Below are positions 41,407 to 62,885 of a stretch of DNA of 64,000 bases, piece after piece. The notes below the pieces were generated by a model. It ran no database searches. It had not been told where the DNA came from and saw only the letters and a program-made list of their open reading frames with translations. The stretch is from NCBI GenBank assembly GCA_963422375.2, contig OY729427.2, positions 1,088,001 to 1,152,000 of the forward strand, given 5' to 3'. The stretch's first letter is position 1. Every line of letters starts with the position of its first letter. Both the position numbers and the translations under genes were made by a program. The stretch comes from Bryobacterales bacterium. Its GTDB lineage: Bacteria; Acidobacteriota; Terriglobia; Bryobacterales; UBA6623.

Positions 41407-42755
41407 GAGCCTTTTGCAAAATTCAGAAAAGAGGGCTGACCGCCCCATGAACGACTAGTTTCCGGGCTGTTATTCTCGCCGAAAAAGACCCCCTTCAGCT
41501 GGGCTTGCTCCGCTTCGGGGCGCTCCTGCGAGGAGCGGCCCCGTGCAGGCGCAGCTCTCCCGGCCCGGCGGGCGGGCGCTCTGCCCGGCTGTCCCGGCGG
41601 CCCGGGCTCTCGGAGCGCCAGGCGCAGGAGCTGCTCCACCGTCAGCGCGAGCACGCCGAACAGGAGGTGGCACAGCACCTTGCCGTGGCCGCGGACGCGC
41701 ACGTGGCGCCCGCCGCAATCGTCCTTCAGGCAGCCGTTGACACGCTCCACCGTCGAGCGCTCCCGATAGCGCAGCTTCGCGGGATCCGCCCGCCAGGCGC
41801 TGCGCAGCGCCTGGGCCTCCCGTGCCAGATCCGCCTGCAGCTCCGTCCGGCCGCGCGGGTTGACATCAATGAGCGGCACGTGCCCGAGCCGCTCGCTGAA
41901 GGCCCGGATCCCGGCCGCGTCGCGCGCGCTGTCCATCAGGTCGTACAGGTTGTCGACGCGGCCCGCGGTCAGTGTCGCCAGCGGGATCGCGGCCTGGCTG
42001 TCGTGCAGCGAAGCCGAGGTGAGCAGGCAGCTGACCGGGATCCCGCCGTCGATCGCGTCGATATGCAGCTTGTAGCCGCGCCAGCTGACGGTACGGCCCT
42101 TGGCGTTGCGCTTGGTGCCGGTATCGCAGCCCTGCGGCAGGTCGTGCAGCATTTCTTCGAGATTCATGTCGGGCTGCCGCGCCAGTCGGCGCGGATCGGG
42201 CGGCCGCTGCTCGCCCTTGCGAGGGCGCCCGCGCTTGCGTTTCGGCTCCGGTTCCGGCGCGGGCTTCCCGGCGGGCCGCTCGCGGCCCTCGATGGCGGTC
42301 GAGTCGCGGGAGACGTGCCCTGCCAAGCGGCCGTCGAGCGCCCGCGCGAGCAGCGCCTGGTGCAAGCGTCCGGGCAGTTCGCCGGCGGCGAACTCGGCGA
42401 AGGCGCGCGAGAAGGTTGCCTCGCCGGGCACGGCCCCGGCCAGGTCCCAGCCGCGCAGGCGGCGCAGGCGGCGCAGGGTGTGATCGGTCTGCAGGCGCTC
42501 GACCAGCGAGCGCGTAGCGGGCTGGTCGAAGACGGCCTTGGCGATGCAGGCGCGCGCCATGGCGGCGCGGCTTTCGCGGGGGCGGCCGCGGCCGCCCTGC
42601 CCGACGGGCAGGAAGTCCTCGACCTGCGCCAGTTCCACCGCTTGGACGAAGCTGCGGCAGCGCTCACCGAGGGGGCCGAGTTCCTGCTCGAGCCAGGGGA
42701 ACAGCCCCTGCTGGAACGTGAACCAGTACGCGGATACGGTTTCTATCAAGGACAT
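41407..42755 (-). mobile_element. IS5/IS1182-like DDE transposase, degenerate; one putative end GAGCCTTTTGCAAAATTC
   Basis: HVSRDSTAI, WRGYKLH, SASLHDS, RSTVERVN; probable stop TGA->CGA near 41610; 9-bp duplication (LRRLRRL); other end not found. Confidence 0.85.
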
Positions 42756-43148
42756 GCCGTGGCGGTCGCGACTTGGCTGGACAGACCGCACGCTGCTGGA
42801 CCTACCCTTGGGACCATCCAGCTCAATCCGGACCGAGATCTCGCTAGGAGCGCCCATCAAGTGGATTGGAGCCGAAAGTGGTTCGGCAAGAGTGATCGCG
42901 GACGTGTCGGGAAGTCTCGGCAAGAGGGCGAGTTTCCCACAAACATCCGAGTTTCGCCACAAGGGGCCATGGAAGTGCCCAAGCTTGGCCGCGAAGACCT
43001 GAAGCGCGTGGTGAAGCAGGTCAAGAAGGCAGACGGCTTGGATGAAGACGCACCTTTATGGGCGCTAGAAGTGGCTAGAACCACACGTAATTGGCCAGCG
43101 GTGGAGGAAGTGATCCTGCCCAAGCATAGCGTGGGTTTGCTCTGCTAG
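42756..43148 (+). pseudogene. 3' fragment of an unknown CDS between two IS elements
   Basis: Open frame of lower GC ending ...LPKHSVGLLC*; no recognised motif. Confidence 0.3.
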
Positions 43149-43198
43149 TCTGCCGTGAACGCAGAAGGAATATGACACATCAAGTTGGATTTGTTATT

Positions 43199-44246
43199 GG
43201 GAATTATATCGGATAGTGCCTAAATAACCCTTGACCGAGGCCGCTGGGCACTATATGATGCCCCCATGAGTCGGACTGGACCGGGCCGGAGCGAACGACG
43301 CGGAATAAGCCTCCCTGAGCTGTTCCGCCAGTTTCCCGACGATGCCGCTGCCGAACGGTGGCTGGTCGAGCAGCGCTGGCCGAATGGGATCGCCTGCCAT
43401 CACTGCGGGTCGACCAATGTGCAAACCGGGGCGAAGCACAAGACGATGCCGTTCCGCTGCCGGGACTGCCGCAAGCGGTTCAGCGTCCGCACCGGGACCG
43501 TCATGCATGCCAGCAACCTCGGACTCCAAGTGTGGGTCATCGCCATGTATCTGATGTCTACCAGCCTCAAGGGCATCAGCAGCATGAAGCTGCACCGCGA
43601 CCTGAACGTGACTCAGAAGGCCGCGTGGTTCCTGGCGCACCGGCTCCGCGACGTGTGGCGCGTGGACGGACACCCGGCGCTGCCGTTCATCGGCCCGCTG
43701 GAAGTGGACGAAACGCACGTCGGCGGGAAGGCGAAGTCGATGCACGGCAAGCGCAAGAAGGCGCTTGGCATCGCAGACAACCCACTGGCGAACAAGACCA
43801 CGGTGGTCGGCGTCCGGGACCGCGAGACCGGCAAGGTAAAGGCGGCCGTCGTGAGCGACACCGCGCCGGAGACGCTGCATGGGTTCGTGGCGCACTGCGC
43901 GGCCCCGACCGCGACGCTCTACAGCGACGGGGAGCCGGCGTATGCCGCGTGGCCGCGCCACGAGGCGGTTGTCCACTCGGCCGGCGAGTACGTGAAGGGG
44001 TAGGCCAGCATCAACGGCATGGAGTCGTTCTGGAGCCTCCTCAAGCGCGGCTACGTCGGCACGTTCCACCGCATGAGCCGGGAGCACCTGCACCGCTACG
44101 TGGCGGAGCTCGAGGGTCGGCACAACGCGCGCGGGGACGACACCATCGACCAGATGGCGGCGATCGTACGCGGCGCGGAAGGGAAGCGGCTCCGCTACGC
44201 CGACCTGACCGCCCACCGGCACGGACACACCGCGACGGCTGTCTAG
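43199..44246 (+). mobile_element. IS1595-family element (copy A); transposase 43266-44246 has an in-frame TAG at 44001; right end missing
   Basis: Left IR GGGAATTATATCGGATAGTGCC; CHHC/CRDC zinc ribbon, EVDET, SDG, NGMESFW. Confidence 0.92.
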
Positions 44247-47200
44247 CCCGGATTATTCATGGCGGCCTCGCCTCGGTCGCCGGCGGGAGGTGACCGGGCC
44301 CGATTCGGCCACCGGCAGCGGGTGACCGACCGTTGGACAGCACCTTGAACGCCGCACACGGCGGGTAGCGGTGTGGTTGAGCGACTGACCGGCGTGATGA
44401 TGGGCGCGGCAAGAGGCGGGCAACGACAATTCCACCCGTCGGGCGGTTGACAGCCTTCTGGACGGCAGCGATGCGACGCTCGTCGAGCAGCTATCCGGCG
44501 CGCCCCCGAGGGCGAATGCGATGTGCCGCCACGCCGCCAGGTCCGGTGTCGCGCGCGGCAGGCGCAGGACGATGCGACGCACGGAGCGCACCACCTGGAC
44601 GCCGAGCTTCAGCAGCCGGTCGCGCAGCCAGGGCGCCTGCGCGCGGCTGCACGCGGTGTCGGCGGCGCGCAGCCGCAACTCCTGCATCAGCACGTAGGCG
44701 GCGGCCGTCAGCAGGACGCGCAACTGGTTCGGTGAGAACTGGTGGCAACTCGTGCGGTCGATCCGCAGGGCCTTCAATTCCTTGATCCGGTTCTCGACGT
44801 CACCGCGGTCGCAGTAAACCTCCTCGTAGAGGAAACGCGGCGTCTGCCGCATGTTGGTCACGACGAAGCGCGGATTGTCCCGCGGCGCGCGACCCACGAG
44901 GCAGACGACTTCGGCCTTGATGATGACGCGGCGCGCGTGGTTCCACGTGCCGGCCTGATACTCGGCGGTCTCGGTGTAGACGTGCTCGGTCTGTTCACTG
45001 CGCCAACTCCGCGCCACCAGCATGGCCGGCTCGGCGTGCCGCTCCAACACCGCGTTCTTCGCCATGGCGACCACGTATTCGAGTCGCGGCTGCGCCTCCA
45101 GGAAGTCGAAGACCTCCGGGGTCGCAAAGCCCCCGTCGAGCCGAACGCGAAAGTGCGCCCGCGGAAACGCCCGGCGCAGCAGCGGCAGCAACCGCGACAA
45201 TAGGCCGACCGTCCCCTTGGAGGCGACCGCCTTGCCGTGCCGCAGCAGCGCCGCGCACAGATACTGCTCGGATCGCAGTCGAAGGTCAGGAAGGCCAGCA
45301 GCGGCAGGTAGCACCAGGTGTCGTAGTTCCCGTTGAAGAGCGTGTACTGCTGCGCCCCGTGCGTCGGGTCGTCCGTCGGGTCCAGGTCGATCGTGATGCG
45401 CCGCGCCCGCCCGTCCAGCCGGCGGCGATGCCGCGAGATGACCCGCGTGGCCAACTCGTCCGCTATACGGTAGAGAGCGCAGCCGTTGACTGCGTTCTCG
45501 AACCGCGACAGCGTCGGCTGCGAGGCCAGGCGCTCGCCCGAAACCGGGTCTCTGTCGAGCAGCAGCTTATGGACGGGGTCGTCGGCGAGACGGTCGCCGT
45601 CGTTGCAGTCGGGGTGGCCGCAGGCGATGCCGAAGATGCGCTGACCGACCAGGTCCGCGAGCGAGTGCCGGGTCTTGTCCGGCGCCCGCTTGTCGAACAG
45701 ACACCCGGCGAACGCCTTGACCAGGCCGTAGATGCGCTCGGCTGCCTTCAGCAGAACCGCCCCGCCGTCGGAGCTGGCCTGCTCCTGGTTGAACTCGGCG
45801 ACGACGGGCTTGGCGAACACATCGGGGAACAGAACAGTCCGTGATATCGTTTGGGAATTATATATCTGAGTGCCGAGGCAACCGATTTTGCAAATTATCA
45901 GTCCATAAATTAATTTCATATTTCTTCCGGAGATCTGTTGAAAGTCGGTGAAGTATTTTGATAGAATAGTTCCAATATATGAGGTCGTCTATGAAGCAGG
46001 AAGGCCCCGGGAAGTGGTTTCGTAAAGGCATCACTCTGATTGAGGTGATCGCCATGTTCCCCGATGACGAATCCGCGGAAAAGTGGTTCGCCTCCATGCG
46101 CTGGCCCGACGGTCCGGTATGCCCCCACTGCCGCGGCTCCAGCGTGCAGTCCGGCACGGCCCACCCTTCGATGCCGTACCGTTGCCGCGGCTGCGGCAGG
46201 CGCTTTTCCGTGCGCACCGGCAGCGTGATGGCCGACACCAAGCTCGGCTACCGCACCCGGGCCGTCGCCCTGTTCCTGCTGACTACCGGCATCAAGGGCG
46301 TCTCAAGCATGAAGCTGCACCGCGACCTGGGCATCAGCCGGAAGTCGGCCTGGCACCTGGCGCACCGCATCCGCGCGTGCCGGGAGCGGGATCAGGGCCT
46401 GTTCGCCGGCCCGGTGGAGGTGGACGAGACTTACGTCGGCGGCAAGGAGCGCAACAAGCACGAGAGCAAGAAGGCCCGCGCCGGGCGCGGGCCCGTCGGC
46501 AAGACCCCGGTGGCGGGGGCGCGGGACCGCGCCACGAACGCAGTGGCCGCGCGGCCGCTGCCGGGCACCGCCAAGGGCGACCTGCAGGGCTTCGTGCGCG
46601 CCCGCGTCGTGCCGGGCGCGCAGGTCCGCTCCGACGAGGCGGCGGCCTACGCCGGCATGGAGGAGTTCCCGCACGAAGCCGTCAAGCACTCCCGCGGCGA
46701 GTACGTGCGCGGGGCAGCGCATACGAACGGCATCGAGTCGTTTTGGTCCCTGTTCAAGCGCGGCCTGTACGGCACCTATCACCGGATGAGCGTCCGTCAT
46801 CTCGGCCGCTACCTCACGGAGTTCGCGGGACGGTACAACGACCGCGACTGCGACACGGCGGAACGGATGCGGCGCATGGCGCGAGGCCTGGTCGGCCGGA
46901 CGCTGACCTACCGGCAGCTGACCGGCAAGGCCGCGGTCGCGGCCCGAGCGGCGCCCTCCGCGCCGAGCGCCGCAGCCCGCTGCCGACGCGCTCTTCACGC
47001 TCGATGCGCTTCACGCTCGGTGCGAGGGCGCGCCGGATCTGGAATCCCCCGGCGCGACCCACGTCCGGCCCGGACCGTCCATGCAGGCCGTCGAGCGCCG
47101 GGGATCCGCTGTCTTCGGCCCTCGCAGGGCACGCAAGCGGCTTGCAAGGGGTGCCCTCCACCGCCAACCGGATTCCACCCGGCATGCGAGGGGGCCTCTC

Positions 47201-47489
47201 TTATCCGTACCTCGTCCATTCCGCTGGCAGGTTCGATTCAGATACGATCCCACCTTTCCGTGCCTACCGCGGCCGCATTCGAATGACCCGAGCCAGACGC
47301 CGACCTCCCTGCTCAGAGCAGTTCTCGTCGGACATGGCGTTGTTGGCACTCAGATATATAATTCCCTATCGTTTCGGGTGTCACGCAAGGGCCTCCGTGG
47401 TGGCGCAAGTGGTTGTCAACACTGCACTTGTACCACACGGGGGCTCTTGTGTCTGTACCGGAATCGGAATACGCCACGAATTTTTCGGG
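44247..47489 (-). mobile_element. IS1380-family element; transposase (GTG 47384 to about 44490) frameshifted near 45270 and interrupted by IS1595 copy B
   Basis: SSDGGAVLL, LASQPTLSRFEN, IDLDPTDDPTHGAQQ, RLDGGF, RGDVENRIKELK; ends CCCGGATTATTCAT / CACGAATTTTTCGGG; GGAGG RBS before the GTG. Confidence 0.9.
45853..47366 (+). mobile_element. Complete IS1595-family element (copy B, 1514 bp); transposase from 45991, stop lost near 46946
   Basis: Perfect 22-bp IRs GGGAATTATATATCTGAGTGCC; 8-bp TSD TATCGTTT at 45845-45852 and 47367-47374. Confidence 0.96.
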
Positions 47490-47510
47490 CTATCTGGTCG
47501 TCCGTGTAGG

Positions 47511-47762
47511 TCACGGGCATCGTCTACTCCGACCCATCCGCCGGATCCTGTACTCGTGGAACAGCGCCCGGGTGATCCGCTGCCGGACCAGCTCCTTCGG
47601 TGTCTCCTTGATCTGCTTCGTGCCCGAAATGAAGTCGAGGACGAACCCGTCGCGGACGACGTCCGTGTCGGTCGCGTCCGCCGATGCGGCCGCCGCGCCG
47701 CTGGCGGTAGCCGCGCCGGGCGTTCTTCGCTGACGCGTCCTGGTCGAGGGCCCTCGGCTCAT
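47511..47762 (-). pseudogene. N-terminal fragment of a type I RM-related protein (HsdR_N-type domain)
   Basis: DFISG...ETPKELVRQRITRALFHEY resembles the HSDR_N_2 TPxExVRQ motif; truncated next to the IS1380 end. Confidence 0.6.
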
Positions 47763-47925
47763 GTGTGACGGTGTTCTTCGATGGTACGAACCTCGCCTCC
47801 AGCTCTCCCAGGTCGGCGGTGCAGACGCCTGGCGGTCAATCGTACACAAGCAGGCTTGACTTGGGCCACTGTCGCGCGTTATGTGTTGCACAACAGTAAA
47901 CGCGCCGGCGGATGAGGCCCTGGCG

Positions 47926-48297
47926 ATGACCAAGAGTTTCGGGGGCACGATTCGGGAACTGCGGGAAGCGCAGAAGCTGGGTCTGCGGGCGGCGGCCGAC
48001 CGGCTGGAGATATCGCCTGCGTATCTCAGCCACATCGAACGGGGCAAGAAACACCCGCCGAGGCCGGCGCTCGTGAAGCGCATGGCGACGCTGCTCGGTG
48101 GCGATCCGGATCTGCTGTTCCGTCTCGCGGAGAGCACGGATCCCGATCTCGCCGCCTACATGCACCGCGTGCCGCGCATTCCGGAGTTCCTGCGCACCGC
48201 GAAGAAGATGAACCTGACGTCGGAGGACTTCGACGTGCTGATCGAAGAGGTCAAGCGAGGCCGCCCCTCGGAGACCATCGATACCGCGGAGACGTAG
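47926..48297 (+). CDS. XRE-family HTH transcriptional regulator
   Basis: FGGTIRELR...LRAAADRLEISPAYLSHIERG. Confidence 0.9.
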   Translation: MTKSFGGTIRELREAQKLGLRAAADRLEISPAYLSHIERGKKHPPRPALVKRMATLLGGDPDLLFRLAESTDPDLAAYMHRVPRIPEFLRTAKKMNLTSEDFDVLIEEVKRGRPSETIDTAET

Positions 48298-48311
48298 ACA
48301 CCGACACTGCG

Positions 48312-48358
48312 CGATGGCCACGTCGGTTCATGTCGATGGCCACGGTCGGTTCATGTCG
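48312..48358. repeat. 22/23-bp imperfect tandem duplication
   Basis: CGATGGCCACG(G)TCGGTTCATGT twice. Confidence 0.8.
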
Positions 48359-48449
48359 CCGGTCGCGAGTTGCCGCTGGACGAGCCTTTGCCGGCGGATG
48401 AGCCGGCCCGCGGGCTGTCGGCCATCCGGCGCGCGGCTGGCGCTCAGGC

Positions 48450-49013: not shown

Positions 49014-49248
49014 CGACACGGGCGAACAGCTCGGTCATGCGCACATGGTGGCGCAGGTCGTCGCGGCGACTGGCCGCGTCAGGCCAGCCCGGATGTTGCA
49101 GCAGCACCTGCCGTCGCAACTCGTCGGCAATCCGCATCGCTTCGAGAGGACCGAGACGCTGAACCCGCTCGGCCCAGTAGGCATCCTTGGCGGCGCGCGC
49201 CCTCTGCCAATCGCGCGTCATGAAGGCGCGGATGCCGCGGGTGATCAT
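48994..49248 (-). CDS. Small hypothetical protein overlapping the NTase start (possible antitoxin/partner)
   Basis: 84 aa helical ORF, 20-bp overlap, TATGAT 6 nt before its ATG. Confidence 0.65.
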   Translation of the reverse strand: MITRGIRAFMTRDWQRARAAKDAYWAERVQRLGPLEAMRIADELRRQVLLQHPGWPDAASRRDDLRHHVRMTELFARVDAARRA

Positions 49249-50858: not shown

Positions 50859-52290
50859 GGGAATTATATATCTGAGTGCCGAGGGAATCAAGTCGGCAAA
50901 TTATCAAGCCATTATAAGATTTCATATTTCTTCCGACTTTCCGTTGACATTCTGTGGTGTTTCTTGGTAGAATAGTTCCAGTATGGGATACCGTAAATGA
51001 AGAAATCAGGTCCCGGAAAGTGGTTCCGTAAAGGCATCACATTGATCGAAGTGATTGCCATGTTCCCCGATGACGAATCCGCGAAAAAGTGGTTCGCCTC
51101 CATGCGCTGGCCGGACGGTCCCGCGTGCCCCCGCTGCCGCGGCTCCAGCGTGCAGTCCGACGCGGCCCACCCTTCGATGCCGTACCGTTGCCGCGGCTGC
51201 GGCAAGCGCTTTTCCGTGCGCACCGGCAGCGTGACGGCCGACACCAAGCTCGGCTACCGCGTCCGGGGCGTGGCCCTTGTTCCTGCTGACCACCGGCCTC
51301 AAGGGCGTCTCCGGCATGAAGCTGCATCGCGACCTAGGCATCAGCCGGAAGTCGGCCTGGCACCTGGCGCACCGCATCCGCGCGTGCTGGGAGCGGCATC
51401 GGGGCCTGTTCGCCGGCCCGGTGGAGGTGGACGAGACCTGCGTCGGCGGCAAGGAGCGCAACAAGCACGAGAGGAAGAAGGCCCGCGCCGGGCGCGGGCC
51501 CGTCGGCAAGACCCCGGTGGCGGGCGCGCGGGACCGCGCCACGAACGCAGCGGCCGCGCGGCCGCTGCCGGGCACCGCCAAGGGCGGCCTGCAGGGCTTC
51601 GTGCGCGCCCGCGTCGCGCCGGGGGCGCAGGTCCGCTCCGACGAGGCGGCGGCCTACGCCGGCATGGCGGAGTTCCCGCACGAAGCCGTCAGGCACTCCG
51701 GCGGCGAGTACGTGCGCGGGGCGGCGCATACGAACGGCATCGAATCGTTTGGGTCCCTGTTCAAGCGCGGCCTGTACGGCACCTATCACCGGATGAGCGT
51801 CCGTCATCCGGGCCGCTACCTCACCGAGTTCGCGGGACGGTGCAACGACCGCGACTGCGACACGGCGGAACGGATGCGGCGCATGGCGCGGGGCTTGGTC
51901 GGCCGGACGCTGACCTGCCGGCAGCTGACCGGCAAGGCCGCGGTCGCGGCCTGAGCGGCGCCCGCCGCGCTGAGCGCGGCAGCCCGCTGCGGGCGCGCTC
52001 TTCACGCTCGGTGCGCTTCACGCTCGGTGCGAGGGTCGCACCGGATCCGGCATGCCCCGGTGCGACCCCGGTCCGGCCCGGACCGTCCATGCAGGCCGTC
52101 GAGCGCCGGGGATCCGCTGTCTTCGGCCCTCGCAGGGCCTGCAAGCGGCTTGCAAGGGGTGCCCTGCCACCGCCAACCGGGTTTCACCGGGGCAACCGGG
52201 GCATGCGCGGCGGCCTCTCTAGTCCCTTCCTCGTCCAATCCGCTGGCAGGCTCGATTCAGATACGATCCCACCCCTCCGTGCCCGCCGCG
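50859..52290 (+). mobile_element. IS1595-family element (copy C, closely related to B); transposase 50997-51954 frameshifted near 51277; right IR missing
   Basis: Same 22-bp left IR as copy B; high nucleotide similarity through the 3' non-coding region. Confidence 0.93.
50944..50973 (+). promoter_or_regulatory. Near-consensus sigma70 promoter TTGACA-N18-TAGAAT (with TGn) for the transposase
   Basis: Read directly from sequence. Confidence 0.6.
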
Positions 52291-52294
52291 CCGC

Positions 52295-52800
52295 GCCCCA
52301 GTAGGCCCCAGTAGGCGTCGTCCACCGGCACGATGCCGCCCGGCGGCACGCGCTCGTCGCGCTCCTGCAGCACTGGCAGGAGCTTGTGCTGCACCTTCCA
52401 AGCCGTGTTCCGGCTCACGCCCAGCGGCACGCGCCAGTTCCAGCGACGAAACGCCGTGCTGGCCCTGCGTCAGCAGGTGGATCGCCAGGAACCGGACGGT
52501 CAGCGTCAGCTGGGTGGCGGCGAAGATCGTGCCGGCGACGAGGGAGCTCTGGCGGTGGCAGGCACTGCACTGCCAGAGCTTGCGGGAGCGGATGCGGCAG
52601 TGCCGCCGGGAGCCGCACTCCGGACAGCGGGCGTTGAAGACGGCCTGCTCGCATTGCCCCTCGCTGCCGTAACTTGCCCAGACTCAGTCCCTTCTGGAAT
52701 TGCACGCGATTGCCTTTCATCTGCTATCCCCTTTCCTATCAGAGGTTTCCGACCTCCTCCAGTATAGCATATCCTCGGCTGACGTTCGTTGGTAATCAGG
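52295..52800 (-). mobile_element. Truncated, frameshifted copy of the second IS1595 type (same as 61608)
   Basis: End CCTGATTACCAACGAACGTCAGCCGAGGATATGCTATACT; MKGNRVQFQKGLSL...VDDAYWG then breaks. Confidence 0.88.
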
Positions 52801-53946: not shown

Positions 53947-53947
53947 C

Positions 53948-54874: not shown

Positions 54875-56063
54875 GGCGACAGCAGCCGATCTTCCCCTAG
54901 GATTCCGGTTCGCCGCCGGCTACGCAGGCATCCGCAAGGAAGCATCCGACGACTTGGCGCTGATGGTGTCGGACACCCGGGCGTCCGCCGCGGCGGTCTT
55001 CACCCGCAACGAGGTGCGGGCCGCGCCCGTTATCAGGAGCGTGTTGTCCATGCTGCAGAGCGGCGGCACCGCGCGGGCCATCGTTGCCAACGCCGGCAAC
55101 GCCAACTGCGCCGCCCCGTGGATGGAGGAGGTGGCTCTGGCGACGGCCCGCAAGGCGGCCGCGCTCGCCGGCGTCGAGGAACACCAAGTGCTGCTGGCAT
55201 CCACGGGCGTGATCGGCGAGCCCATGGAGATCGGCGTGATCCCGACTGCGCTGCCGCGCCTGTGGGCCGCGCTCTCGCGGGACCAGTTCGAGGCCTGCGC
55301 ACGGGCGATCATGACGACGGACACCGTGCCGAAGATCCGCTGCGAAAAAGTCGAGACAGCGGACGGCACCATACGTCTGGCCGGCATGGCCAAGGGGGCG
55401 GGCATGATCATGCCCGACATGGCGACAATGCTGTCGTTCCTGTTTACGGACGCCGCCATCGAGCCCCAGCGCCTGAAGGAAATGCTGCAGTCCTCGGTCA
55501 ACCACAGCTTCAACTGCGTCACGGTAGACTCGGACACTTCCACGAACGACACCGTCTACCTACTTGCGAGCGGAGCCTCCAACGTGCGGGTCGACGACGA
55601 CTCCGCACCAGCTTTCCAAGCCGGCTTGGACGCGCTTACCCGCGACCTAGCCATCGATATCGTCCGCGACGGGGAAGGAGCGAGAAAGCTGGCCGAAATC
55701 ACGGTCGAAGGCATGGCTACGGACTGGGGAGCGAAGCAAATCGCCATGGCGGTCGCCAACTCGCCCTTGGTCAAGACGGCGCTCGCCGGGGCCGACCCGA
55801 ACTGGGGGCGAATGCTCGCGGCGGCCGGCAAGTCGGGCGCCCTGTTCCTCGCCTCCCACATGAGCGTCTTCGTGAACGGTGTACAGGTCTGCGCCGACGG
55901 CGTGCGCGCCGACTACGACGAACCGGCGTTGCAGCGCACTATGGAAGGTGACGAGATCTCGATCCGTATCGCTATGCGGGACCCGGGACCCGGCTTCGCC
56001 AGAGCCTGGACCTGCGACCTCACCGAAGACTACGTCCGCATCAACGCCGACTACCGCACGTGA
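54867..56063 (+). CDS. argJ: Bifunctional ornithine acetyltransferase / N-acetylglutamate synthase
   Basis: ASTGVIG, IMTTDT, AKGAGMIMPDMATML, DTSTNDT, DGEGA, YVRINADYRT. Confidence 0.97.
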   Translation: MNEATAADLPLGFRFAAGYAGIRKEASDDLALMVSDTRASAAAVFTRNEVRAAPVIRSVLSMLQSGGTARAIVANAGNANCAAPWMEEVALATARKAAALAGVEEHQVLLASTGVIGEPMEIGVIPTALPRLWAALSRDQFEACARAIMTTDTVPKIRCEKVETADGTIRLAGMAKGAGMIMPDMATMLSFLFTDAAIEPQRLKEMLQSSVNHSFNCVTVDSDTSTNDTVYLLASGASNVRVDDDSAPAFQAGLDALTRDLAIDIVRDGEGARKLAEITVEGMATDWGAKQIAMAVANSPLVKTALAGADPNWGRMLAAAGKSGALFLASHMSVFVNGVQVCADGVRADYDEPALQRTMEGDEISIRIAMRDPGPGFARAWTCDLTEDYVRINADYRT

Positions 56064-56123
56064 TGCGACGGACCGCTTGAATCGCGGCGCATCCGGGGCC
56101 ATACTCGGAAGAGCTCAGCGCAG

Positions 56124-56199
<76 letters not shown>

Positions 56200-56252
56200 G
56201 GAGTCCCGCAGACGCCCGGAACGGTCGCGGCTCGACGGGCCGTCCCAGCCCC

Positions 56253-57608
56253 CTACACGGTGTCGGGAGTCGGATGGATCCAAGGCTTCCGGTACGGCCG
56301 CGCAAGCTTGCCGGTGGCCTCGGAATCGCCGATCACCTCGTGCCTAGCCGCATCCCACGCGAGGGATCGCCCCACCTCCATCGAAACGTTGGCGAGCAGG
56401 CAGCAGGCGGTCGAGATGTGCCCCTGCTCGATGTCCGCGACCGGCCGCGAGCGCCCGTCAATCGCCTTCAGGAAGTCCCGCATGTGGGCCCGCAGCACGG
56501 GAAACTCGTGCGCTCCGAGCCTCGACTCGACCGTGTCGACCTTGTCGATCTGGTACTTGTCGATTTCCGTGACGGCGTCGCGTCGGATCGGCCTCTCCTG
56601 CTTCTCTACCGGGATGAATTCCCACTTCGTGGTCGAGCCCTTGAAGAGCCCCTTCTCTCCGTAGATGAAATACGCCCAAGGATAGCCGGCGTAGACCGGC
56701 GGGCCCCAGTTGCGGTGCGTCCAGACGACATTGAGGTCGGGGAAGGCGAAGGTCGCCGTCTGGGTGTCGGGAGTGTTGGCCTTGCTGCCCTTGTCCACGA
56801 AGATGCCGCCGATCGAATGCACGGACGAGGGCCAGCCCAGATCGAGCGTCCAGCGCACGAGGTCGATCATGTGGATGCACATGTCGCCGATCACCCCGTT
56901 TCCGTACTCCATGAAGTACCTCCAGCGACGGGGGTGCGTCCACTGGCAGAACGGCCGCATCGGAGCGGGGCCGGTCCACATCTCGTAATCGAGATGCGAC
57001 GGCGGACCGGTGTCCGGCGGGTTGCCCCGTGGGCTGCGGTAGACGTAGCAGCAGACCTCGGCATGCGAGATCTTTCCGAGCATTCCGCTCCGGATCCGAT
57101 CACGGGCCTCGACCAGGTGAGGCGCGGAGCGCCGCTGGGTGCCGACTTGGCACACCCGACCGTACTTGCGGGCCGCGGCTACCATCGAGCGACCCTCGAC
57201 GACATCGACCGAGACCGGCTTCTGGACGTACACGTCCGCGCCCGCCCGCATCGCCTCGACCGCCGGCAGGCAGTGCCAGTGGTCGGGCGTCGCAACCTCC
57301 ACGATGTCGGGCTGCTCCTGCTTGAGCAGTTCGCGATAGTCCCCGTAGGTGCGGGGAACCTTGCCGGACCTGTGGCGCTTCGATGCCATCTGCGCGTCGG
57401 CGGCCAGGCTCCGGCTGTCGGGATCGCAGAGGGCCACGATCTCCACGTCGTCGACCTGGACGAGACGGAACAGGTCGTTCTTGCCGTACCAGCCGGATCC
57501 GACCAGCGCGACCCGGCGCGGCCGGTCCGCGGCCCGGGCGCCTGCCAAGGGTAGGCTCGCGGCAGCAGCCCGGACGAAGGCGCGACGATCAATCGAAGTG
57601 GGTGCCAT
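56253..57608 (-). CDS. Tat-exported Gfo/Idh/MocA oxidoreductase
   Basis: DRRAFV Tat motif, GSGWYG, ATPDHWH, YVQKP, GDMCIHMID. Confidence 0.92.
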   Translation of the reverse strand: MAPTSIDRRAFVRAAAASLPLAGARAADRPRRVALVGSGWYGKNDLFRLVQVDDVEIVALCDPDSRSLAADAQMASKRHRSGKVPRTYGDYRELLKQEQPDIVEVATPDHWHCLPAVEAMRAGADVYVQKPVSVDVVEGRSMVAAARKYGRVCQVGTQRRSAPHLVEARDRIRSGMLGKISHAEVCCYVYRSPRGNPPDTGPPSHLDYEMWTGPAPMRPFCQWTHPRRWRYFMEYGNGVIGDMCIHMIDLVRWTLDLGWPSSVHSIGGIFVDKGSKANTPDTQTATFAFPDLNVVWTHRNWGPPVYAGYPWAYFIYGEKGLFKGSTTKWEFIPVEKQERPIRRDAVTEIDKYQIDKVDTVESRLGAHEFPVLRAHMRDFLKAIDGRSRPVADIEQGHISTACCLLANVSMEVGRSLAWDAARHEVIGDSEATGKLARPYRKPWIHPTPDTV

Positions 57609-57781
57609 GCTCGTCTCCGTGCGCCAGACATTACCACAGCCGACGCCTGCGCGGCGCATGCGGCCGCTGGCGCAGTTGAGACTCTGGCGCCCGGGGGGTA
57701 TTCTGGCAGCGGGCCCGGCTGCCGGCCCGGGAAGCGTTTCCGGCGCGCGGCAGGGCAGGTCTAGTCACTCGGGAGGTCCTG

Positions 57782-59065
57782 ATGAACCGCATCACTCGGA
57801 GAGAGGCCGTCGGAACGGCGCTGGCCGGATTCGCAGTCCGCGCCAGCGCACAGTCGCCCAGCGACCAGTTGGGCGTTTCGGTGGTCGGCGTGGGCGGCAT
57901 GGGCCACGGCCATGTCGAGCGAGTCCTGACACGCGACGACGTCCGCATCGTCTCGATCTGCGACGTCGACCAAGCCAACGCGGAGCGCGCGGGCCAGACG
58001 GTCAACAAGGCCCGCGGCAAGACGCCGAACCTGGTAGAGGACTTCCGCAACGTGCTCGACGACAAGGAGGTCGACGCGGTCGTCGTGGCGACACCGCACC
58101 ACTGGCACGCGCCCATCGCGGTACGGGCGATGCAGGCAGGCAAGGACGTCTACGTGGAGAAGCCGGCCAGCCACGTGTTTCGCGAGGGCCGGCTGCTGGC
58201 GGAAGCGGCGAAGAAGTACGATCGCATCCTGCAGCACGGCACGCAGATGCGCTCGAGCGAAGTTACTAAGCGGGCCGACGCGCTGCTCCGGGAAGGCATC
58301 ATCGGCGAAGTCAAGATGTCGAAGGCGTGGAACTGCCAGCGCCACACGCACCGGCAGCTCGCGGAGGACGCCCCGATTCCCGCCGGCGTCAACTACGACC
58401 TCTGGGTGGGCCCGGCAGCCTACGACGGCAGGTTCAATCCGAACCGCTACAACCGCAACTGGAACTGGTACCGGGCATTCGGGAACGGCGACATCGGCGG
58501 GGACGGCCCGCACGACCTCGACCTAGCGCGCTGGGGCCTCGGGGTGGAGACCCATCCCGCGCGGATCACGGCGCACGGCAGCCGGGTCGACTTGGAAGGG
58601 ATCCGGGAGTTCCCCGACAACATGGTGGTCGCCTACCACTACGAGGAAGGCAAGGTCCTGATTTACGAGGACCGCGGCTGGACGCCGTACGGAATGCACG
58701 GGTTCGACAGCGGCAACGCCTTCTACGGCAGCGAAGGCTACATGATCTTCTCGAGGCGGGGCTACTTCCAAGTCTATCTCGGCAGGAACGAGGTCAAGGG
58801 CCCGGGCATAGCGGACGGCCCGACCGGCCATCCGGAGCACATGTACAACTTCCTGGACTGCGTGAAGACCCGCGAGCAGCCGGTCGCGAACGCCGAAGTC
58901 GCGCATCTCTCGTGCGGTCTGATCCATCTGGGAGAGGCCGCCTACAGGGCCGGCCGGGTGTTGCACTTCGACCCGGGGCGGGAGCGCTTCGTCGGCGACC
59001 CGGACGCGGACAAGCTGCTCACCAAGGAGTACCGCGAGCCTTGGTCGATGCCCGACCCGGTCTGA
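57782..59065 (+). CDS. Tat-exported Gfo/Idh/MocA oxidoreductase
   Basis: TRREAV, GVGGMG, ATPHHWH, YVEKP, HDLDLARW. Confidence 0.92.
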   Translation: MNRITRREAVGTALAGFAVRASAQSPSDQLGVSVVGVGGMGHGHVERVLTRDDVRIVSICDVDQANAERAGQTVNKARGKTPNLVEDFRNVLDDKEVDAVVVATPHHWHAPIAVRAMQAGKDVYVEKPASHVFREGRLLAEAAKKYDRILQHGTQMRSSEVTKRADALLREGIIGEVKMSKAWNCQRHTHRQLAEDAPIPAGVNYDLWVGPAAYDGRFNPNRYNRNWNWYRAFGNGDIGGDGPHDLDLARWGLGVETHPARITAHGSRVDLEGIREFPDNMVVAYHYEEGKVLIYEDRGWTPYGMHGFDSGNAFYGSEGYMIFSRRGYFQVYLGRNEVKGPGIADGPTGHPEHMYNFLDCVKTREQPVANAEVAHLSCGLIHLGEAAYRAGRVLHFDPGRERFVGDPDADKLLTKEYREPWSMPDPV

Positions 59066-59075
59066 GTCGCGGCCT

Positions 59076-60143
59076 CTATCTCGGTGCCGGTCCGCCCTCT
59101 CGGATCGCGCGGAAGAACCGCACGGCCTGCTCCTGGCCCCAGAAGCGAGGTCGGCCGCGGGCAAGAAAGGCGACGTGGCCGCCACGGCGCGGGCCGATGA
59201 ACCTCAGCCATGGGTTCTCGCGCAGGGCGGGCAGGTCGAACGCCTCGAAGGGGATGAAGGGATCGTCCTGTGCTTGGATGATCAGCGCGGGCACGCGGAT
59301 GCGGCCGAGAAATCGCGCCGACGAGGCCTGCTCGTAGTAGTCGGCGGCGTTCCGGAAACCGAACGCCGGAGCGGTCACCAGCTCGTCGAACTGCCAAATC
59401 GAGCGCGGCTTGGGCAATCCCTCCCCGGGGAAGGAGCCGGGAAGCGCCGCGCGCTTGCGCCGGAGGGCCGCGCCCAGCTGGAGCAGGAAGCGCTTCTCGT
59501 AGACGGCGTTGCGCCTGCGGCCGATGTTTCGCGAGCACAGATCCAGCCGGATGGGCGGAGAGACGGCGCAGACGGCCCGCACGTGAGCCGGGGCGGACTC
59601 GCCCCATTCCCCGGCCAGCTTGAGCGCGATGTTGCCGCCCATCGAGTAGCCGACCAAATACAGCGGCCGCGGCGCGAGCGCGTCGACCACCGCCCGCAGG
59701 TCGGCGGTCAGGCCCGAGTGGTACAGGGTGCGGCAGAGGTGCTCAGTGCCTCCGCAGTTGCGAACATTGAGGCGCGCGGCATCGAATCCGGATTGCAGCG
59801 CCGCGCGGGCGACCGAGACCATGTACGGGGCCCGGTCGCAGGCCGTCAGGCCGTGCAGCGCCAGCACCGTTGGGCGCGCCCGCGGCGGGGCGCCGCCGGC
59901 CCGGGCGTTCAGCTTCGCCAGGACGCGAGTATCGGGGTCGGTCCGGAACAGGCGCGATTCCGTGGGGAACCTGCGCTCGTCGAGCGACTGAGGCCAGTAG
60001 CGCGCCGCGACCGTCTGGAGGTCCCCGCCGGGCAGCAGCGGCCGGTAGGGCAGGCGCCACGCCTCCTCGGGGGGCGGCAGCGGGCCTCTTGCGAACGATC
60101 GCGCGGAAGCAGGCTCAGCGGGAGGCGCGAAGGTTCTCGGCAA
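59076..60143 (-). CDS. YheT-family alpha/beta hydrolase
   Basis: HGL, YHSGLTAD, GYSMGG nucleophile, DDPF, GGHVAF. Confidence 0.9.
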   Translation of the reverse strand: MPRTFAPPAEPASARSFARGPLPPPEEAWRLPYRPLLPGGDLQTVAARYWPQSLDERRFPTESRLFRTDPDTRVLAKLNARAGGAPPRARPTVLALHGLTACDRAPYMVSVARAALQSGFDAARLNVRNCGGTEHLCRTLYHSGLTADLRAVVDALAPRPLYLVGYSMGGNIALKLAGEWGESAPAHVRAVCAVSPPIRLDLCSRNIGRRRNAVYEKRFLLQLGAALRRKRAALPGSFPGEGLPKPRSIWQFDELVTAPAFGFRNAADYYEQASSARFLGRIRVPALIIQAQDDPFIPFEAFDLPALRENPWLRFIGPRRGGHVAFLARGRPRFWGQEQAVRFFRAIREGGPAPR

Positions 60144-60690
60144 GGAGCACGTCCAATTCCTTGACCAGGTGCGTCTCCATGTCTGACCAGAACTCCCCGT
60201 CCATGCCGCGATGCTCGTAGCGAATCACGCCGTTCCTGTCGACGAGCATCATATACGGCACGTAGGCCCGCGCCATGACGGACAGGTCGGCGAACCGCAT
60301 CCAGTCGGAGCGGGTCGAAACACCCACGGGAAACTCGACGCGGTGGTCCCTCCTGAAGCTGTCGATGTTGCCGGGCGCGTTCGGATTCACGGCCATCGCC
60401 ATGATCTCCAGCCCCTGGCCGGCGTACTTCTCGTAGATCGGCCCGAGGGCCTCGCAGGTGGACTGACAGTGCGGGCAGTCGGTGGAGATCCACAGCACGG
60501 CCACGACCTTGCCCTTGAGAGCGCCTAAGTCAATCGTCTTCCCGGAGACTGTCTTGAGGGCTAGTTCGGGCGCGTCGCGGGGCACGTTGCCGGCGCCCAG
60601 CGCCGAAGCGGCCAGCCACGCTCCTAACACAACGCCCGGAAGCATGCGAACTCGCATCGAGGCGACAAATCGACCTAGGGATCTCTTCAT
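60115..60690 (-). CDS. Redoxin/TlpA-like thiol-disulfide oxidoreductase; start uncertain
   Basis: LKGKVV..CPHC, YVP..LVDRNGVIR. Confidence 0.85.
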   Translation of the reverse strand: MKRSLGRFVASMRVRMLPGVVLGAWLAASALGAGNVPRDAPELALKTVSGKTIDLGALKGKVVAVLWISTDCPHCQSTCEALGPIYEKYAGQGLEIMAMAVNPNAPGNIDSFRRDHRVEFPVGVSTRSDWMRFADLSVMARAYVPYMMLVDRNGVIRYEHRGMDGEFWSDMETHLVKELDVLLAENLRASR

Positions 60691-60808
60691 GGCTTCGTAC
60701 CGGGAGCCGACCGCCACGCGCCCATCGCTTTCGAGGGGCCGGTGATTCCGCGACGTCTCCGAGTTCAATCTATCACACGCTCCCGGTCATCCGATCGGGG
60801 TCTCGAAC

Positions 60809-60843
60809 AGGCTATGCCTGGTCCGCGACCGCAGGCATAGCCT
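60809..60843. repeat. Perfect 12-bp inverted repeat AGGCTATGCCTG-N11-CAGGCATAGCCT
   Basis: Read directly; intergenic. Confidence 0.75.
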
Positions 60844-61233
60844 ACCGACGGGGTTTCTCGGTCGGACGCCGGACTAGCCCGGATCAGCTAAGGGCCACCT
60901 GCGGGCGGGCGAAGTCGCGCTTGGTCGCCGCCTACTAGCCCGCTCGCGATTCGGAGTGGGGCGAGGCTACCGGTCCGGGTCCGCAGGGAGGCGCACGGTA
61001 CGCCGACCAAGCGAACCGAAGACTAGCTCGCGAGAGGGGCCCGCCGACGGGGCAAGCGAGGACCGCCCGCCACTCGCGAGGCTCCCGGACAGGTCCGCAT
61101 TCCCCGCCCGCAGCCATTTTCTAAGCGGGTTCTCGGTCACCGAGAGCACAGCAACGAGACCCCTGCCATTGATCCTCACCTAAGTAGATGACGATCTCTA
61201 GTTATGGCACTGAGGTCTCTTCTTGGATGGATT

Positions 61234-61422
61234 CTACTTGATTCTCGAATCGGATTTGAACAGGTATCTTGCCACGAAATACAAGCACGTCGGTACATTG
61301 GCCGTTGTAGTTCAAGCGATTGTCATGATAACACCATCGGATAAAGCGAAGTATTCGAGCGGTCGAAGGAATCCCTGAAGCTGGAATATCAATCCCGCCG
61401 ACCACTTAGGCCTATCGTCCAT
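61234..61422 (-). pseudogene. Degenerate small membrane protein with internal TGA (61312-61314), coupled to the Panacea fragment
   Basis: Manual translation: MDDRPKW...FALSDGVIMTIA*TTTANVPTCLYFVARYLFKSDSRIK; ATG overlaps the upstream ORF end. Confidence 0.55.
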
Positions 61423-61607
61423 CTTGAGCCTGTTCTACCCTAGCCCTGAAGTGCTTGGCAATCAACTCGTTCGGGATGTCCACTCCCTTGAATTTCGGAT
61501 TCTCCCTATGGATCTTCGACCATGGTGAGTCAGACGCATGGGGCATTCGAGAGAGCTCGCAGGCCGAGAACTTGCCGTAGACTTCAAGCACACGTTGCAA
61601 AATCATA
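61412..61607 (-). pseudogene. C-terminal fragment of a Panacea (DUF4065/SocA-like) antitoxin, cut by IS1595
   Basis: ILQRVLEVYGKFSACELSRMPHASDSPW...IPNELIAKHF resembles the YG..SA..L...TH....PW....I...I..F pattern. Confidence 0.7.
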
Positions 61608-62885
61608 CCTGATTACCAACGAAAGTCAGCCGAGGATATGCTATACTGAAGGAGGTCGGAAATCTCTGACAGGAAAGGGGATAGCAGATGAAACGCAAGC
61701 GCGTGCAATTCCAGAAGGGACTCAGCCTGGGCAAGTTCCTGCAGCGCTACGGCAGCGAGGGGCCATGCGAGCAGGCCGTCTTCAACGCCCGCCGGCCGGA
61801 CGGCTTGCGCTGCCCGGAGTGCGGCTCCCGCCGGCACTGCCGCATCCGCTCCCGCAAGCTCTGGCAGTGCCATGCCTGCCACCGCCGGACCTCCCTCGTC
61901 GCCGGCACGATCTTCGCCGCCACCAAGCTGCCGCTGACCGCCCGGTTCCTGGCGATCCACCTGCTGACGCAGGGCAAGCACGGCGTTTCGTCGCTGGAAC
62001 TGGCGCGGCAGCCGGGCGTGAGCCGGAACACGGCTTGGAAGATGAAGCACAAGCTCTTGCAAGTGATGAAGGAGCGCGACGAGCGCCTGCCGCTGGGCGG
62101 CATCGTGCAGGTGGACGACGCCTGTTGGGGCGGGGAGCGGCGGGCAAGACGCCGTTCGTGGCCGCCGTGCAGGTCACCGCCGCCGGCCAGCCGGCAAGGA
62201 TGCGCATGAGCAGCGTGGCAGGCTTCCGCAAGAAGACGCTGGCAGCCCGGGCCAGGCGGCACTTGCAGCCCGGCACGGAGGTGCATTCCGACGGCCCGGC
62301 CTGCTTCCGGGGCGTGGCCGACGCCGGCTGCGAGCACGTGCCGACCGTCACCGGAGGCGCGAAGCGGAGCTGCGGGGATTCCCGCTTCGTCCGGGTCAAC
62401 GTCCGGGTCAACACGATGCTGGCGAACGTCAAGCAGTCCCTGGCGGGAACCTGCCATGCGCTCGACGGCAAGCACCTGCCGCGGTACCTCGCCGAGTTCC
62501 GCTACCGCTTCAACCGCCGCTACGATCTGGAGGTGCTGGTCCCCCGCCTGCTCCACGCCTCCGTGCGCACCCCGCACATGCCTTACCGCCTCCTAACCTT
62601 GGCTGAGTCTTGTGGGTAATTAGTGCTTGTGACAAAACCCCTGAATTCTGGCCTGATCAGCATTTCATACTACATCCTGATGTCGGATGGATCTCCAAAC
62701 ACAACATATAGGGCCCAAGGTCGGAAGTTGCTCAGCCGCCAATCGCGAACATTTCCGCGCTCTACCCAGAATTGGCAGGATTTCGGACCAGTCGTAGCAT
62801 TCCAGCGAAATCTTCGCCTTGAGAGATTGGATCTAACGCCTTTATTGTCAAGGGGATACGAGTTTTGTCACAGGCACTAATTAGG
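61608..62885 (+). mobile_element. IS1595-family element (second type); transposase 61688-62619 frameshifted near 62140; right IR split by a MITE
   Basis: Left IR CCTGATTACCAACGAAAGTCAGCC; reconstructed right IR GGCTGAGTCTTGTGGGTAATTAGG; CPEC/CHAC, QVDDA, SDG, YLAEFRYRFNRR. Confidence 0.92.
62623..62877. mobile_element. 255-bp non-autonomous MITE-like element
   Basis: IRs GTGCTTGTGACAAAAC / GTTTTGTCACAGGCAC (15/16); TAATTA on both sides (62617-62622, 62878-62883). Confidence 0.88.

Follow-up and report, generated by a model that had tools for sequence, protein, structure and literature searches.

Dead IS copies in a 6-Mb Bryobacterales-related genome carry damaging alleles that lean towards G and C and are common to many copies, and the evidence points to GC-biased overwriting among these copies, a process that is well known in animals and disputed in bacteria. 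The pattern is probably the result of GC-biased ectopic gene conversion, by which GC alleles are spread among the dead copies and AT alleles are held down.

Transposase relics in the window

The window, the whole analysed stretch of 64,000 nucleotides, contains the following elements:

41407..42755, minus strand: decayed transposase gene of a 24-copy IS family (Pfam PF01609, PF05598 and PF13751; DUF772 + DDE_Tnp_1)
43266..44228, plus strand: IS1595-family copy A, closest partner at most 68% identical, frame broken by TAG at 44001-44003
44253..45852, minus strand: IS1380-type transposase (DDE_Tnp_1_4), split over two frames, without a close partner
45853..47271, plus strand: IS1595-family copy B, whose gene runs from about 45991 and has CGA in place of its stop
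50859..52290, plus strand: IS1595-family copy C, gene 50997-51954, 1-base insertion near 51277
52305..52800, minus strand: truncated inverted copy of a second IS1595 family (family D), inverted repeats I1-I5
61607..62625, plus strand: IS1595-family copy D (61.6-kb copy), gene from 61688, family of about 105 copies
63921..64000, plus strand: start of a further family-D copy (repeat D6), extending beyond the window (C1:1151921-1152939)

The transposase families of the window thus comprise about 130 copies (B and C), about 105 copies (D) and 24 copies (the 41.4-kb transposase, for which "IS5-like" is a working label only). We take the IS1595 family to be marked by a Zn ribbon, an ISXO2-like DDE domain, terminal inverted repeats and an 8-base target duplication. 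PF12760 was found in copies A, B and D and PF12762 in copies A, B and C, while inverted ends and 8-base target duplications were found in family D, the one family in which they were checked. Copy B is among the least damaged members of its family, whereas most damaging alleles of copy C are common to 13-98 further copies. Copy D has a 28-base deletion, present in 1 of 79 copies and carried over into the family-D consensus used here, as well as a short tandem duplication. Copy A served as the partnerless control. The 41.4-kb element extends about 100 bases upstream of its gene, and the upstream end of the IS1380-type transposase adjoins copy B.

Damage in the window copies and their families

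The codon changes that the first-pass annotation had read from copies B and C were checked by alignment with two sister-genome copies and by family codon counts. H46R, M80T, S106G, Y148C, V185A, D197G, K232R, Y282C and Y307C are present in copy C, W131R and the stop change TGA->CGA in copy B, and W90R in both. Of the two GTG->GCG changes proposed for copy C, the one at codon 207 is likelier to be a C->T change in copy B, as the family consensus there is Ala. For the CAG->TAG change proposed at 44001 in copy A, the corresponding column of the outgroups most often has Gln. Counted over conserved non-degenerate sites, the changes in copy C are 8 A:T->G:C, 2 A:T->C:G, 1 A:T->T:A, 1 G:C->C:G and 0 G:C->A:T, and those in copy B are 4 A:T->G:C and nothing else; the 61.6-kb copy has 7 A:T->G:C, 2 A:T->C:G and 4 others, and the 41.4-kb copy 5, 2 and 5, respectively.

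The earlier observation of A:T->G:C decay is partly confirmed. Damage does run towards GC, with family-wide per-site ratios of A:T->G:C to G:C->A:T of 23, 5.6 and 9.4, far beyond chance. It is not "almost only" A:T->G:C, however, as A:T->C:G changes per copy are equal or higher in two of three families (5.05 vs 5.08; 5.63 vs 3.95). Most of the listed changes are also not private to the window copies, with W90R found in 96 of 114 and Y220C in 73-74 of 109 copies. The idea that dead genes stay open holds for point nonsense changes, which are rare (7 of 86 full IS1595 B/C copies), but not for frameshifts, since 38 of the same 86 copies have a net frameshift; the same is true of 11 of 19 copies of the 41.4-kb family. 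The stop codon reads CGA in 43 of 105 IS1595 B/C copies, and no IS copy is without damage. True nonsense alleles occur in 1-2 copies each. One that was listed at 30 copies proved to be an artefact of the variable 5' end.

Allele frequencies across IS copies

Alleles were polarised with outgroups about 65-77% identical at the DNA level. Counting against the majority consensus hides the effect, because the consensus itself has damaging alleles. Copies below 85% identity or 300 bases were left out. So were codons at which outgroup agreement was below 75%, outgroups numbered under 6, or the conserved residue stood in too few copies. A G/C allele is present in at least 10% of copies at 60 of 419 conserved A/T positions, while an A/T allele reaches this frequency at 5 of 591 conserved G/C positions. 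By class, 25 sites are A:T->C:G and 36 A:T->G:C, and transitions and transversions are equally raised, with a mean frequency of 0.186 each in a table that retains some wrongly polarised alleles of family D (four S->W at ≥88%; W = A/T, S = G/C). The number of alleles at conserved non-degenerate sites of the two big families is as follows, with the 24-copy family left out of the fit:

Copies per 100: 1, 2-3, 4-10, 11-30, 31-60, 61-95
W->S: 47, 22, 15, 22, 9, 10
S->W: 65, 17, 0, 2, 0, 1
GC-neutral: 33, 8, 5, 3, 1, 1

The W->S class is shifted above the neutral class (p 0.002) and the S->W class below it (p 0.005), the neutral class being 51 alleles, mostly G->C. The scaled bias from a rough fit is 9 (5-15). 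As the neutral class is mostly G->C and A->T alone resembles S->W, a bias towards anything that yields G or C is compatible as well. The spread of alleles is indifferent to their effect on the protein: rare-allele pN/pS is near neutral (0.75-0.86), and invariant residues are damaged as often as others (27/178 vs 19/104). Cys, Asp and Glu are spared (1 of 54 sites), possibly through context. A search for a single motif behind the GC-ward sites, such as a methylation site, found none, and tetramers show no strong footprint of Vsr (CTAG 0.91, CCAG 1.06, CCGG 1.04). There is no coding-strand skew in the host genome (G000), and W->S frequency shows no clear trend from the element ends inwards.

Exchange of sequence between copies

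Homologous copies exchange sequence, at least partly non-reciprocally. Linkage in the B/C family falls from an r2 of 0.55 at 1-3 bases to 0.06 at 51-100 bases, and all four gametes are found in >90% of distant pairs. Linkage between synonymous C/G markers also weakens as the distance grows (p 0.008 and 0.03); r2 shows no such fall for W/S sites in B/C (p 0.20) or in the 24-copy family. Multi-site blocks have been transferred between subfamilies, two of which differ by 23% at the left end and by 4-6% inside. In family D, 46 of 73 copies have an intact 8-base target duplication yet are mosaic, and the remaining 27 may reflect crossovers or rearrangement. As a point against biased conversion, linkage among derived GC alleles is slightly positive whatever the distance and does not clearly decay past 10 bases. 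The strand-specific co-conversion signal expected from MutY is not clearly seen. At subfamily-diagnostic sites, with 7 recombinant copies left out, G/C alleles do not cross in excess of A/T alleles: one pair of subfamilies gives 0.114 vs 0.076 and 0.119 vs 0.146, the second pair 0.078 vs 0.102 and 0.076 vs 0.079. This test is a proxy for distorted transmission in conversion products and is conditioned on sites that still differ.

GC-biased conversion would act on large IS families that are no longer under protein constraint and whose copies, as the mosaics show, go on swapping sequence by ectopic recombination, much of it non-reciprocal. New point changes would arise about evenly in both directions, as they do among private changes. 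Mismatches of A/T with G/C in heteroduplexes would then be repaired more often to G/C, a step that would account for the observed frequency shift, so that GC alleles would rise through the family and AT alleles would be wiped out. The likeliest enzymes would be short-patch systems, namely MutY, taking A from A:G and A:C, and Vsr-type (very-short-patch) repair of T:G; gene presence and class specificity make both plausible. Under such repair Trp->Arg, Tyr->Cys, Leu->Pro, Lys->Gln and stop->Arg changes would accumulate family-wide, and nonsense alleles would be rare because nonsense changes are G/C->A/T.

Private changes and repair genes

Recent change gives no support to a reversed mutation spectrum dominated by A:T->G:C. 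Private G:C->A:T changes (670 on 7789 sites) are slightly more frequent than A:T->G:C changes (238 on 3224 sites), and therefore, for private changes, the first-pass annotation fails by its own standard, a G:C->A:T count equal to or above that of A:T->G:C. Pooled over 15 repeat families, the per-site ratio of W->S to S->W is 1.05; the 12 families other than those of the window enter only this singleton count. Loss of mismatch repair does not agree with the genes either: mutS and mutL are both of full length, retain their motifs and look intact in sequence, and neither mark of a mutator, a broken mutS or mutL or mostly A:T->G:C private changes, is present. Likewise, A:T->C:G changes, the mark of a mutT mutator, are only 137 of 1577 singletons. 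A MutT-like Nudix gene is present and scores below the cut-off, as in all 31 genomes of the genus; no nucS was found in the genome.

The genome has recA, mutY, vsr, mutS and mutL, of which recA and mutY also look intact. MutY falls just below the TIGR01084 cut-off (282 vs 286.5 bits) and contains what we take to be the expected motifs, vsr is above its cut-off, and no methylase gene lies beside vsr. Nearly all genomes of the genus that were searched have mutY and vsr, hence their presence is not discriminating.

Partnerless relics and sister genomes

A weaker pull towards GC exists outside the present multi-copy families and, like the even crossing of alleles at subfamily-diagnostic sites, speaks against the conversion reading. 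Transposase relics without a partner at 85% have 55 W->S against 33 S->W changes on 734 conserved sites, a lean that differs from the rare-allele ratio (p 0.0005), and Trp->Arg/Gly is found at 6 of 40 sites against 1 Trp->stop. The W->S load per site is alike in partnerless and multi-copy elements (0.075 vs 0.074) and the difference lies in S->W: the W->S:S->W ratio is 547:35 in multi-copy B/C matches, which are non-independent, and 37:22 in partnerless relics. Several "partnerless" relics have partners at 73-82%. The first-pass interpretation, a mutation spectrum or adenine-directed targeting, is partly supported: a process tied to repeated mobile DNA holds in outline, but it looks like biased spread of alleles between copies rather than targeted mutation of each copy.

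Among the sister genomes, G042 has a young family of 26 copies that are 1.2% apart without an identical pair (2 unrelated elements were left out and a divergent sister copy was set aside as outgroup). The pattern recurs there with A:T->C:G as the only class concerned: 16 of 22 alleles in at least 4 copies belong to it against 4 of 18 singletons, with a coding-strand skew of 14 A->C vs 2 T->G. Two genomes count against biased conversion. In G015 (12 copies) the pattern is lacking, as just 1 of 16 W->S alleles is shared, and G039 is mixed, with a skew at conserved codons (6/7 vs 0/8) and none when all sites are counted (shared alleles: 10 W->S, 13 S->W). G008, with 5 of 15 copies grouped, was left out.

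Alternative explanations

An older period of GC-ward mutation, caused by weak mismatch repair or MutT or by an excess of dGTP/dCTP and followed by unbiased conversion and trans mobilisation under today's balanced mutation, is unlikely, though the likeliest of the alternatives. It accounts for the GC lean of the old partnerless relics and for the lack of asymmetry in the subfamily test, and the contexts are in part those of mutators (for A->G, TAC 6 of 21 sites; A->C before A or T), as compared with the mutL and mutT contexts in part of 10.1101/2022.10.21.513255. Unbiased conversion should, however, also raise S->W alleles, so that their gap counts against it: the commonest class of singletons numbers 17 alleles at 2-3 copies and 0 at 4-10, against 8 and 5 neutral ones (p 0.009). 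In an untuned toy simulation of this history, which serves as illustration and under-predicted singletons, S->W alleles at 4-30 copies were retained without bias and lost in biased runs. Moreover, the repair genes look intact today, and the young family of G042 would require such a period of its own.

Recurrent, context-dependent A/T->G/C mutation at hot sites, arising independently in each copy and ongoing genome-wide, seems more doubtful still. Context does have effects (20 of 56 CCA sites show A->G and 8 of 36 GAA sites A->C), GC alleles are scarcely linked beyond 10 bases, several alleles have similar frequencies in all three subfamilies, and both the strand skew of G042 and the partnerless relics would fit. 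Yet the rates would have to be hundreds to thousands of times the average, by our own estimate, at 14% of A/T sites that share no single motif. With the same 6 flanking bases on each side and in one cell, K70R is found in 10/18, 3/56 and 0/10 copies of the three subfamilies and H46R in 3/17, 38/56 and 8/8. Of 26 CCAG sites, 11 have the derived allele at ≥10% and 13 lack it, at 3 of 318 columns both G000 and G042 are polymorphic (about 1.8 expected by our own arithmetic), and the damage load per copy does not increase with private changes. Together these observations argue against recurrent mutation set by context. Just 1 of 60 sites has both A->G and A->C at ≥10%, and the shuffled C/G markers and the low S->W class would be left unexplained.

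Host selection for higher G+C or for transposase inactivation, acting on alleles supplied by unbiased conversion, is very unlikely. Passages of PMC11879095 argue that selection outweighs gBGC in setting bacterial GC content, and the third positions of host argJ (0.854) are near the top of its relatives (mean 0.796, range 0.729-0.868). Selection for inactivation, on the other hand, predicts spreading nonsense alleles, which remain confined to one or two copies; single bases in dead copies are weak targets, and every copy is damaged. An artefact of assembly or polishing, by which bases are shuffled among copies or miscalled, has slightly less still to recommend it: unique DNA is matched by contigs of three runs (8125 bases with 0 differences in two, 1 in 2792 in the third), contigs of these runs, which may include the window's source, show the alternative IS alleles at multi-copy depth, argJ departs from its relatives at 13 of 206 conserved columns, within their own range and without Trp->Arg or Tyr->Cys, and errors would not turn a damaging allele into the family majority. 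Editing of repeated mobile DNA by a DNA adenine deaminase or a RIP-like defence, although the bias is strongest in multi-copy families and the B/C family has mostly transitions (16 sites vs 3 transversions), is largely refuted and hardly credible, since A:T->C:G changes, which deamination cannot produce, match transitions in strength in two families and predominate in G042, the alleles are common to many copies rather than clustered in single ones, and a PF00383 search gave only three ordinary deaminases, TadA-, ComEB- and RibD-like.

Relation to known systems

[quoted passage not shown] For bacteria it is argued for in passages of Lassalle et al. 2015 (PMC4450053) and doubted in parts of PMC11879095. 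As in gBGC, G/C alleles go up and A/T alleles down in the families described here whatever the effect on the protein, and damaging alleles are driven upward. The material in those two sources, as far as the passages cited go, is strains and genes under selection, whereas the population described here consists of 20-130 dead paralogues on a single chromosome, which largely removes selection on the site. MutS/MutL are named in the relevant part of Lassalle et al. (PMC4450053), while the A:T->C:G specificity of G042 points more to MutY.

Loss of A from A:G and A:C and of T from T:G by MutY and Vsr would likewise leave G/C patches of a few bases and break linkage. Wolbachia has an AT-rich genome with far fewer copies in each family. 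In Wolbachia wBm, according to a passage in PMC3205602 citing Cordaux 2009, conversion similarly keeps dead IS copies alike in a genome without an intact copy. A section of PMC2582958 proposes for H. pylori that MutY acts on G:A or C:A in recombination heteroduplexes. In the portions of this literature cited here, such MutY/Vsr systems (H. pylori interspersed recipient sequences, pneumococcal hyperrecombination) concern transformation or phage crosses and not IS paralogues. E. coli mutL/mutS and mutT mutators give the same two classes in partly similar contexts, judging from parts of 10.1101/2022.10.21.513255 and PMC12606429, but they alter private mutations, which are balanced here in a genome whose repair genes look intact. 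A full-text literature search, which covered few subscription papers, yielded no account of GC-biased conversion between IS copies in bacteria.

Implications

It is unsettled whether bacterial genomes are kept GC-rich by gBGC or by selection, since recombination also aids selection when strains are compared, as parts of PMC11879095 set out. Dead IS families of 20-130 copies offer an allele-frequency spectrum from one genome with selection largely removed and neutral classes built in, and the same test is applicable to any long-read genome with large IS families and can be set against its repair genes. More tentatively, gBGC within one bacterial chromosome might form a one-way ratchet of MutY and Vsr that disables whole IS families, also raises the GC content of the lineage and leaves an enzyme signature in each genome. 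G/C alleles would be written across families without co-converting neighbours, and the signatures would be transitions and transversions in G000 and transversions only in G042. For the annotation of such elements, the family consensus here differs from the ancestral transposase, and a long frame rich in Arg, Pro and Ala can be that of a dead gene.

Insertion sequence families of the host genome

The host genome (G000; 6.0 Mb, 67% G+C, three contigs, C1 to C3) carries repeats with at least five partners that span about 525 kb; the window is C1:1088001-1152000. Four of the transposases singled out in the first-pass annotation fall into three families, and neither copy A of IS1595 nor the IS1380-type element has a partner above 68% identity in the genome.

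Transposase families, as matches in the genome at 85% identity over at least 300 bases
IS1595 B/C family (window copies B and C): 130 matches
IS1595 D family (copy D): 105 matches
41.4-kb transposase family: 24 matches

Copies of family D are often inserted inside the ends of other IS. The genome also contains 18 C5 methyltransferase matches, several fragmented or with stops; three with identical scores, one per contig (C1:1834233, C2:1339756 and C3:16926; loci L076-L078), are perhaps a repeated mobile region or an assembly overlap. A tRNA with a CAT anticodon lies at window 56124-56199, directly after argJ-like, def and fmt genes, the last two named from their motifs.

Damage at conserved sites

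The codon changes named in the first-pass annotation are present in the window copies. When conserved, non-degenerate sites are polarised against outgroup transposases, taken for each family at 14-18 loci of sister genomes, damage runs toward G/C in 91/92, 86/88 and 19/19 copies of the three families, none of which has a copy free of it. The GC-ward direction claimed for this decay stands, but its restriction to A:T->G:C does not, as A:T->C:G is equally frequent in two families. Likewise, dead genes stay open in the sense that point stops are rare (true nonsense alleles at conserved codons occur in one or two copies each), but frameshifts are common.

The damaging alleles are common to many copies, not confined to single ones. 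Among the 419 A/T sites that are conserved, a G/C allele reaches 10% of copies or more at 60 (A->G at 36 and A->C at 25, including one site with both) and an A->T allele at one; the 591 conserved G/C sites have 3 G->A, 2 G->T and 4 G->C alleles of that frequency. Compared with GC-neutral changes, those from A/T to G/C (W->S) have higher frequencies in the two big families (p 0.002) and the opposite class (S->W) has lower ones (p 0.005); a rough fit assuming equilibrium puts the scaled bias at 9 (5-15), with input rates almost equal (ratio 1.28). Rare alleles behave as nearly neutral, with invariant residues not spared. Across the three families, conserved Cys/Asp/Glu codons have a common G/C allele at 1 of 54 A/T sites, and Trp codons at 6 of 12; the sparing of the former possibly stems from context or residual constraint.

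Private changes and repair genes

A reversed, GC-driving mutation spectrum, one of the two explanations first offered, is not supported for recent change by the changes found in a single copy only, counted together across 15 repeat families of which some may belong to one element. On 7789 G/C sites there are 670 G:C->A:T, 191 G:C->T:A and 290 G:C->C:G changes, and on 3224 A/T sites 238 A:T->G:C, 137 A:T->C:G and 51 A:T->T:A. The per-site ratio of W->S to S->W is 1.05 (range 0.22-2.42 in the 14 families with singletons), which is balanced and not reversed. Most bacteria lean more to AT in mutation than these private changes do.

For the other explanation, an adenine-directed process, a PF00383 search of the genome gave only TadA-, ComEB- and RibD-like proteins. 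Judged by their motifs, mutS (878 aa) and mutL (631 aa) are both present with open frames, as are mutY, recA, vsr and a MutT-like gene; nucS was not found in the genome. In the genus, vsr was detected in 30 genomes out of the 31 searched, and the sole copy in G000 (C2:2578614, L075) has no cytosine methylase beside it.

Repeated mutation at favoured contexts could also place one allele in many copies. Sequence context does affect GC-ward alleles, which by itself does not decide between spread and repeated mutation. The same context shows opposite allele frequencies in different subfamilies, half of the CCAG sites carry no derived allele, and both derived bases are seen at 1 of 60 sites. Hot columns are shared between genomes no more than expected by chance, and the damage load of a copy does not track its private divergence.

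Exchange among copies

The copies are mosaics, in which r2 drops over a few tens of bases and all four gametes occur for most pairs of distant sites, C/G sites included. Linkage falls significantly with distance at C/G sites in each of the two big families and, in D, at all sites; no significant fall is seen for W/S sites in B/C, or for the 24-copy 41.4-kb family. Multi-marker blocks cross between three B/C subfamilies. These differ by 15-23% at their left ends, and the interiors of two differ by only 4-6%. The AT-rich left ends (window 45853-45990 and 50859-50996) keep three distinct subfamily types, and the interiors of two subfamilies are homogenised.

In family D, 46 of 73 copies have an intact 8-base target duplication and yet are mosaic, so that much of the exchange must leave flanks in place. 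A neighbour less than 1% away exists for only 4/93 and 3/88 copies of the two big families, so that recent clonal transposition is not the main source of allele sharing. The remaining 27 D copies are without a matching target duplication, and C1:135364 and C1:188330 have the same right flank; this suggests crossovers or rearrangement between copies.

Dead copies of the families at 41.4-42.8 kb and 61.6-62.6 kb also carry, genome-wide, many 8-14-base insertions, a good share of them resembling tandem duplications. This applies to 14 of 23 insertions of at least 4 bases in the 24-copy family, where 17 distinct insertions stand against 11 deletions; bacteria usually lean toward deletion. Insertion counts for family D are inflated by a gap in its consensus.

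As a check for assembly artefacts, contigs of three runs were compared with the unique DNA at 41.0-60.9 kb; they match it almost exactly and carry alternative IS alleles at high depth. ArgJ, which is 60-71% identical to records labelled Bryobacterales or Terriglobia, has no damage of the kind seen in the transposases. This DNA (window 41000-60900) is near-identical in runs of three samples from two studies, one with another organism label, and the population is thus very clonal.

Sister genomes

The comparison covered the best-matching copies of four sister genomes (15 from G042, 14 from G039, 15 from G008 and 12 from G015), followed by 14 more from G042; the allele comparison uses G042, G039 and G015. 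Among singletons in 26 G042 copies, S->W changes outnumber W->S by 12 to 6. Alleles present in at least four copies run the other way, with 17 W->S (16 of them A:T->C:G) against 4 S->W and 1 neutral (6 sites unpolarised; contrast with singletons, p 0.004). The best 14 copies of G039 show a GC skew that is seen at conserved codons and disappears when all sites are counted, and the best 12 of G015 show no allele sharing. In the G042 IS1595 family (loci L162-L175 and L242-L255), 14 of 16 shared transversions are A->C on the coding strand, a skew which counts against GC-biased conversion; 20 of the 26 pattern matches lie on one genome strand. A further G042 copy (L161), 4% divergent with an open 322-aa frame, is without most of the shared alleles.

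GC-biased conversion as a possible mechanism

The dead copies exchange sequence, their private changes are balanced, and their W->S and S->W frequencies are shifted in opposite directions. GC-biased conversion among IS copies is a reasonably probable explanation of this pattern. Several results stand against it: the subfamily test gives no asymmetry of G/C versus A/T alleles, co-conversion is not clearly seen among derived GC alleles, and partnerless relics are GC-leaning too (W->S 55 vs S->W 33). These relics, several of which have partners at 73-82% identity, may be what is left of families that used to be larger; alternatively, the same bias may act between strains, or mutation may have leaned to G/C in the past.

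Under GC-biased conversion, heteroduplexes made by RecA between copies would be resolved toward G/C. The A:T->G:C changes of G000, which are enriched at CCA/TGG, would require either that MutY acts at A:C pairs or that T:G is corrected by a Vsr-type enzyme. From G:A pairs, MutY takes out the A (PMC12606429), an action that would fit A:T->C:G in G042. MutY is also linked to short patches in recombination heteroduplexes (PMC2582958), and such patches would explain how GC alleles move without their neighbours.

Conversion tracts of a few hundred bases are described for bacterial multigene families (PMC8223754), and in Wolbachia dead IS copies are reported to undergo conversion (a study cited in PMC3205602). 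GC-biased gene conversion has been argued for bacteria (PMC4450053) and doubted (PMC11879095), and a full-text literature search returned nothing joining it with conversion among dead bacterial IS copies. Dead IS families offer a selection-free test of this disputed process.
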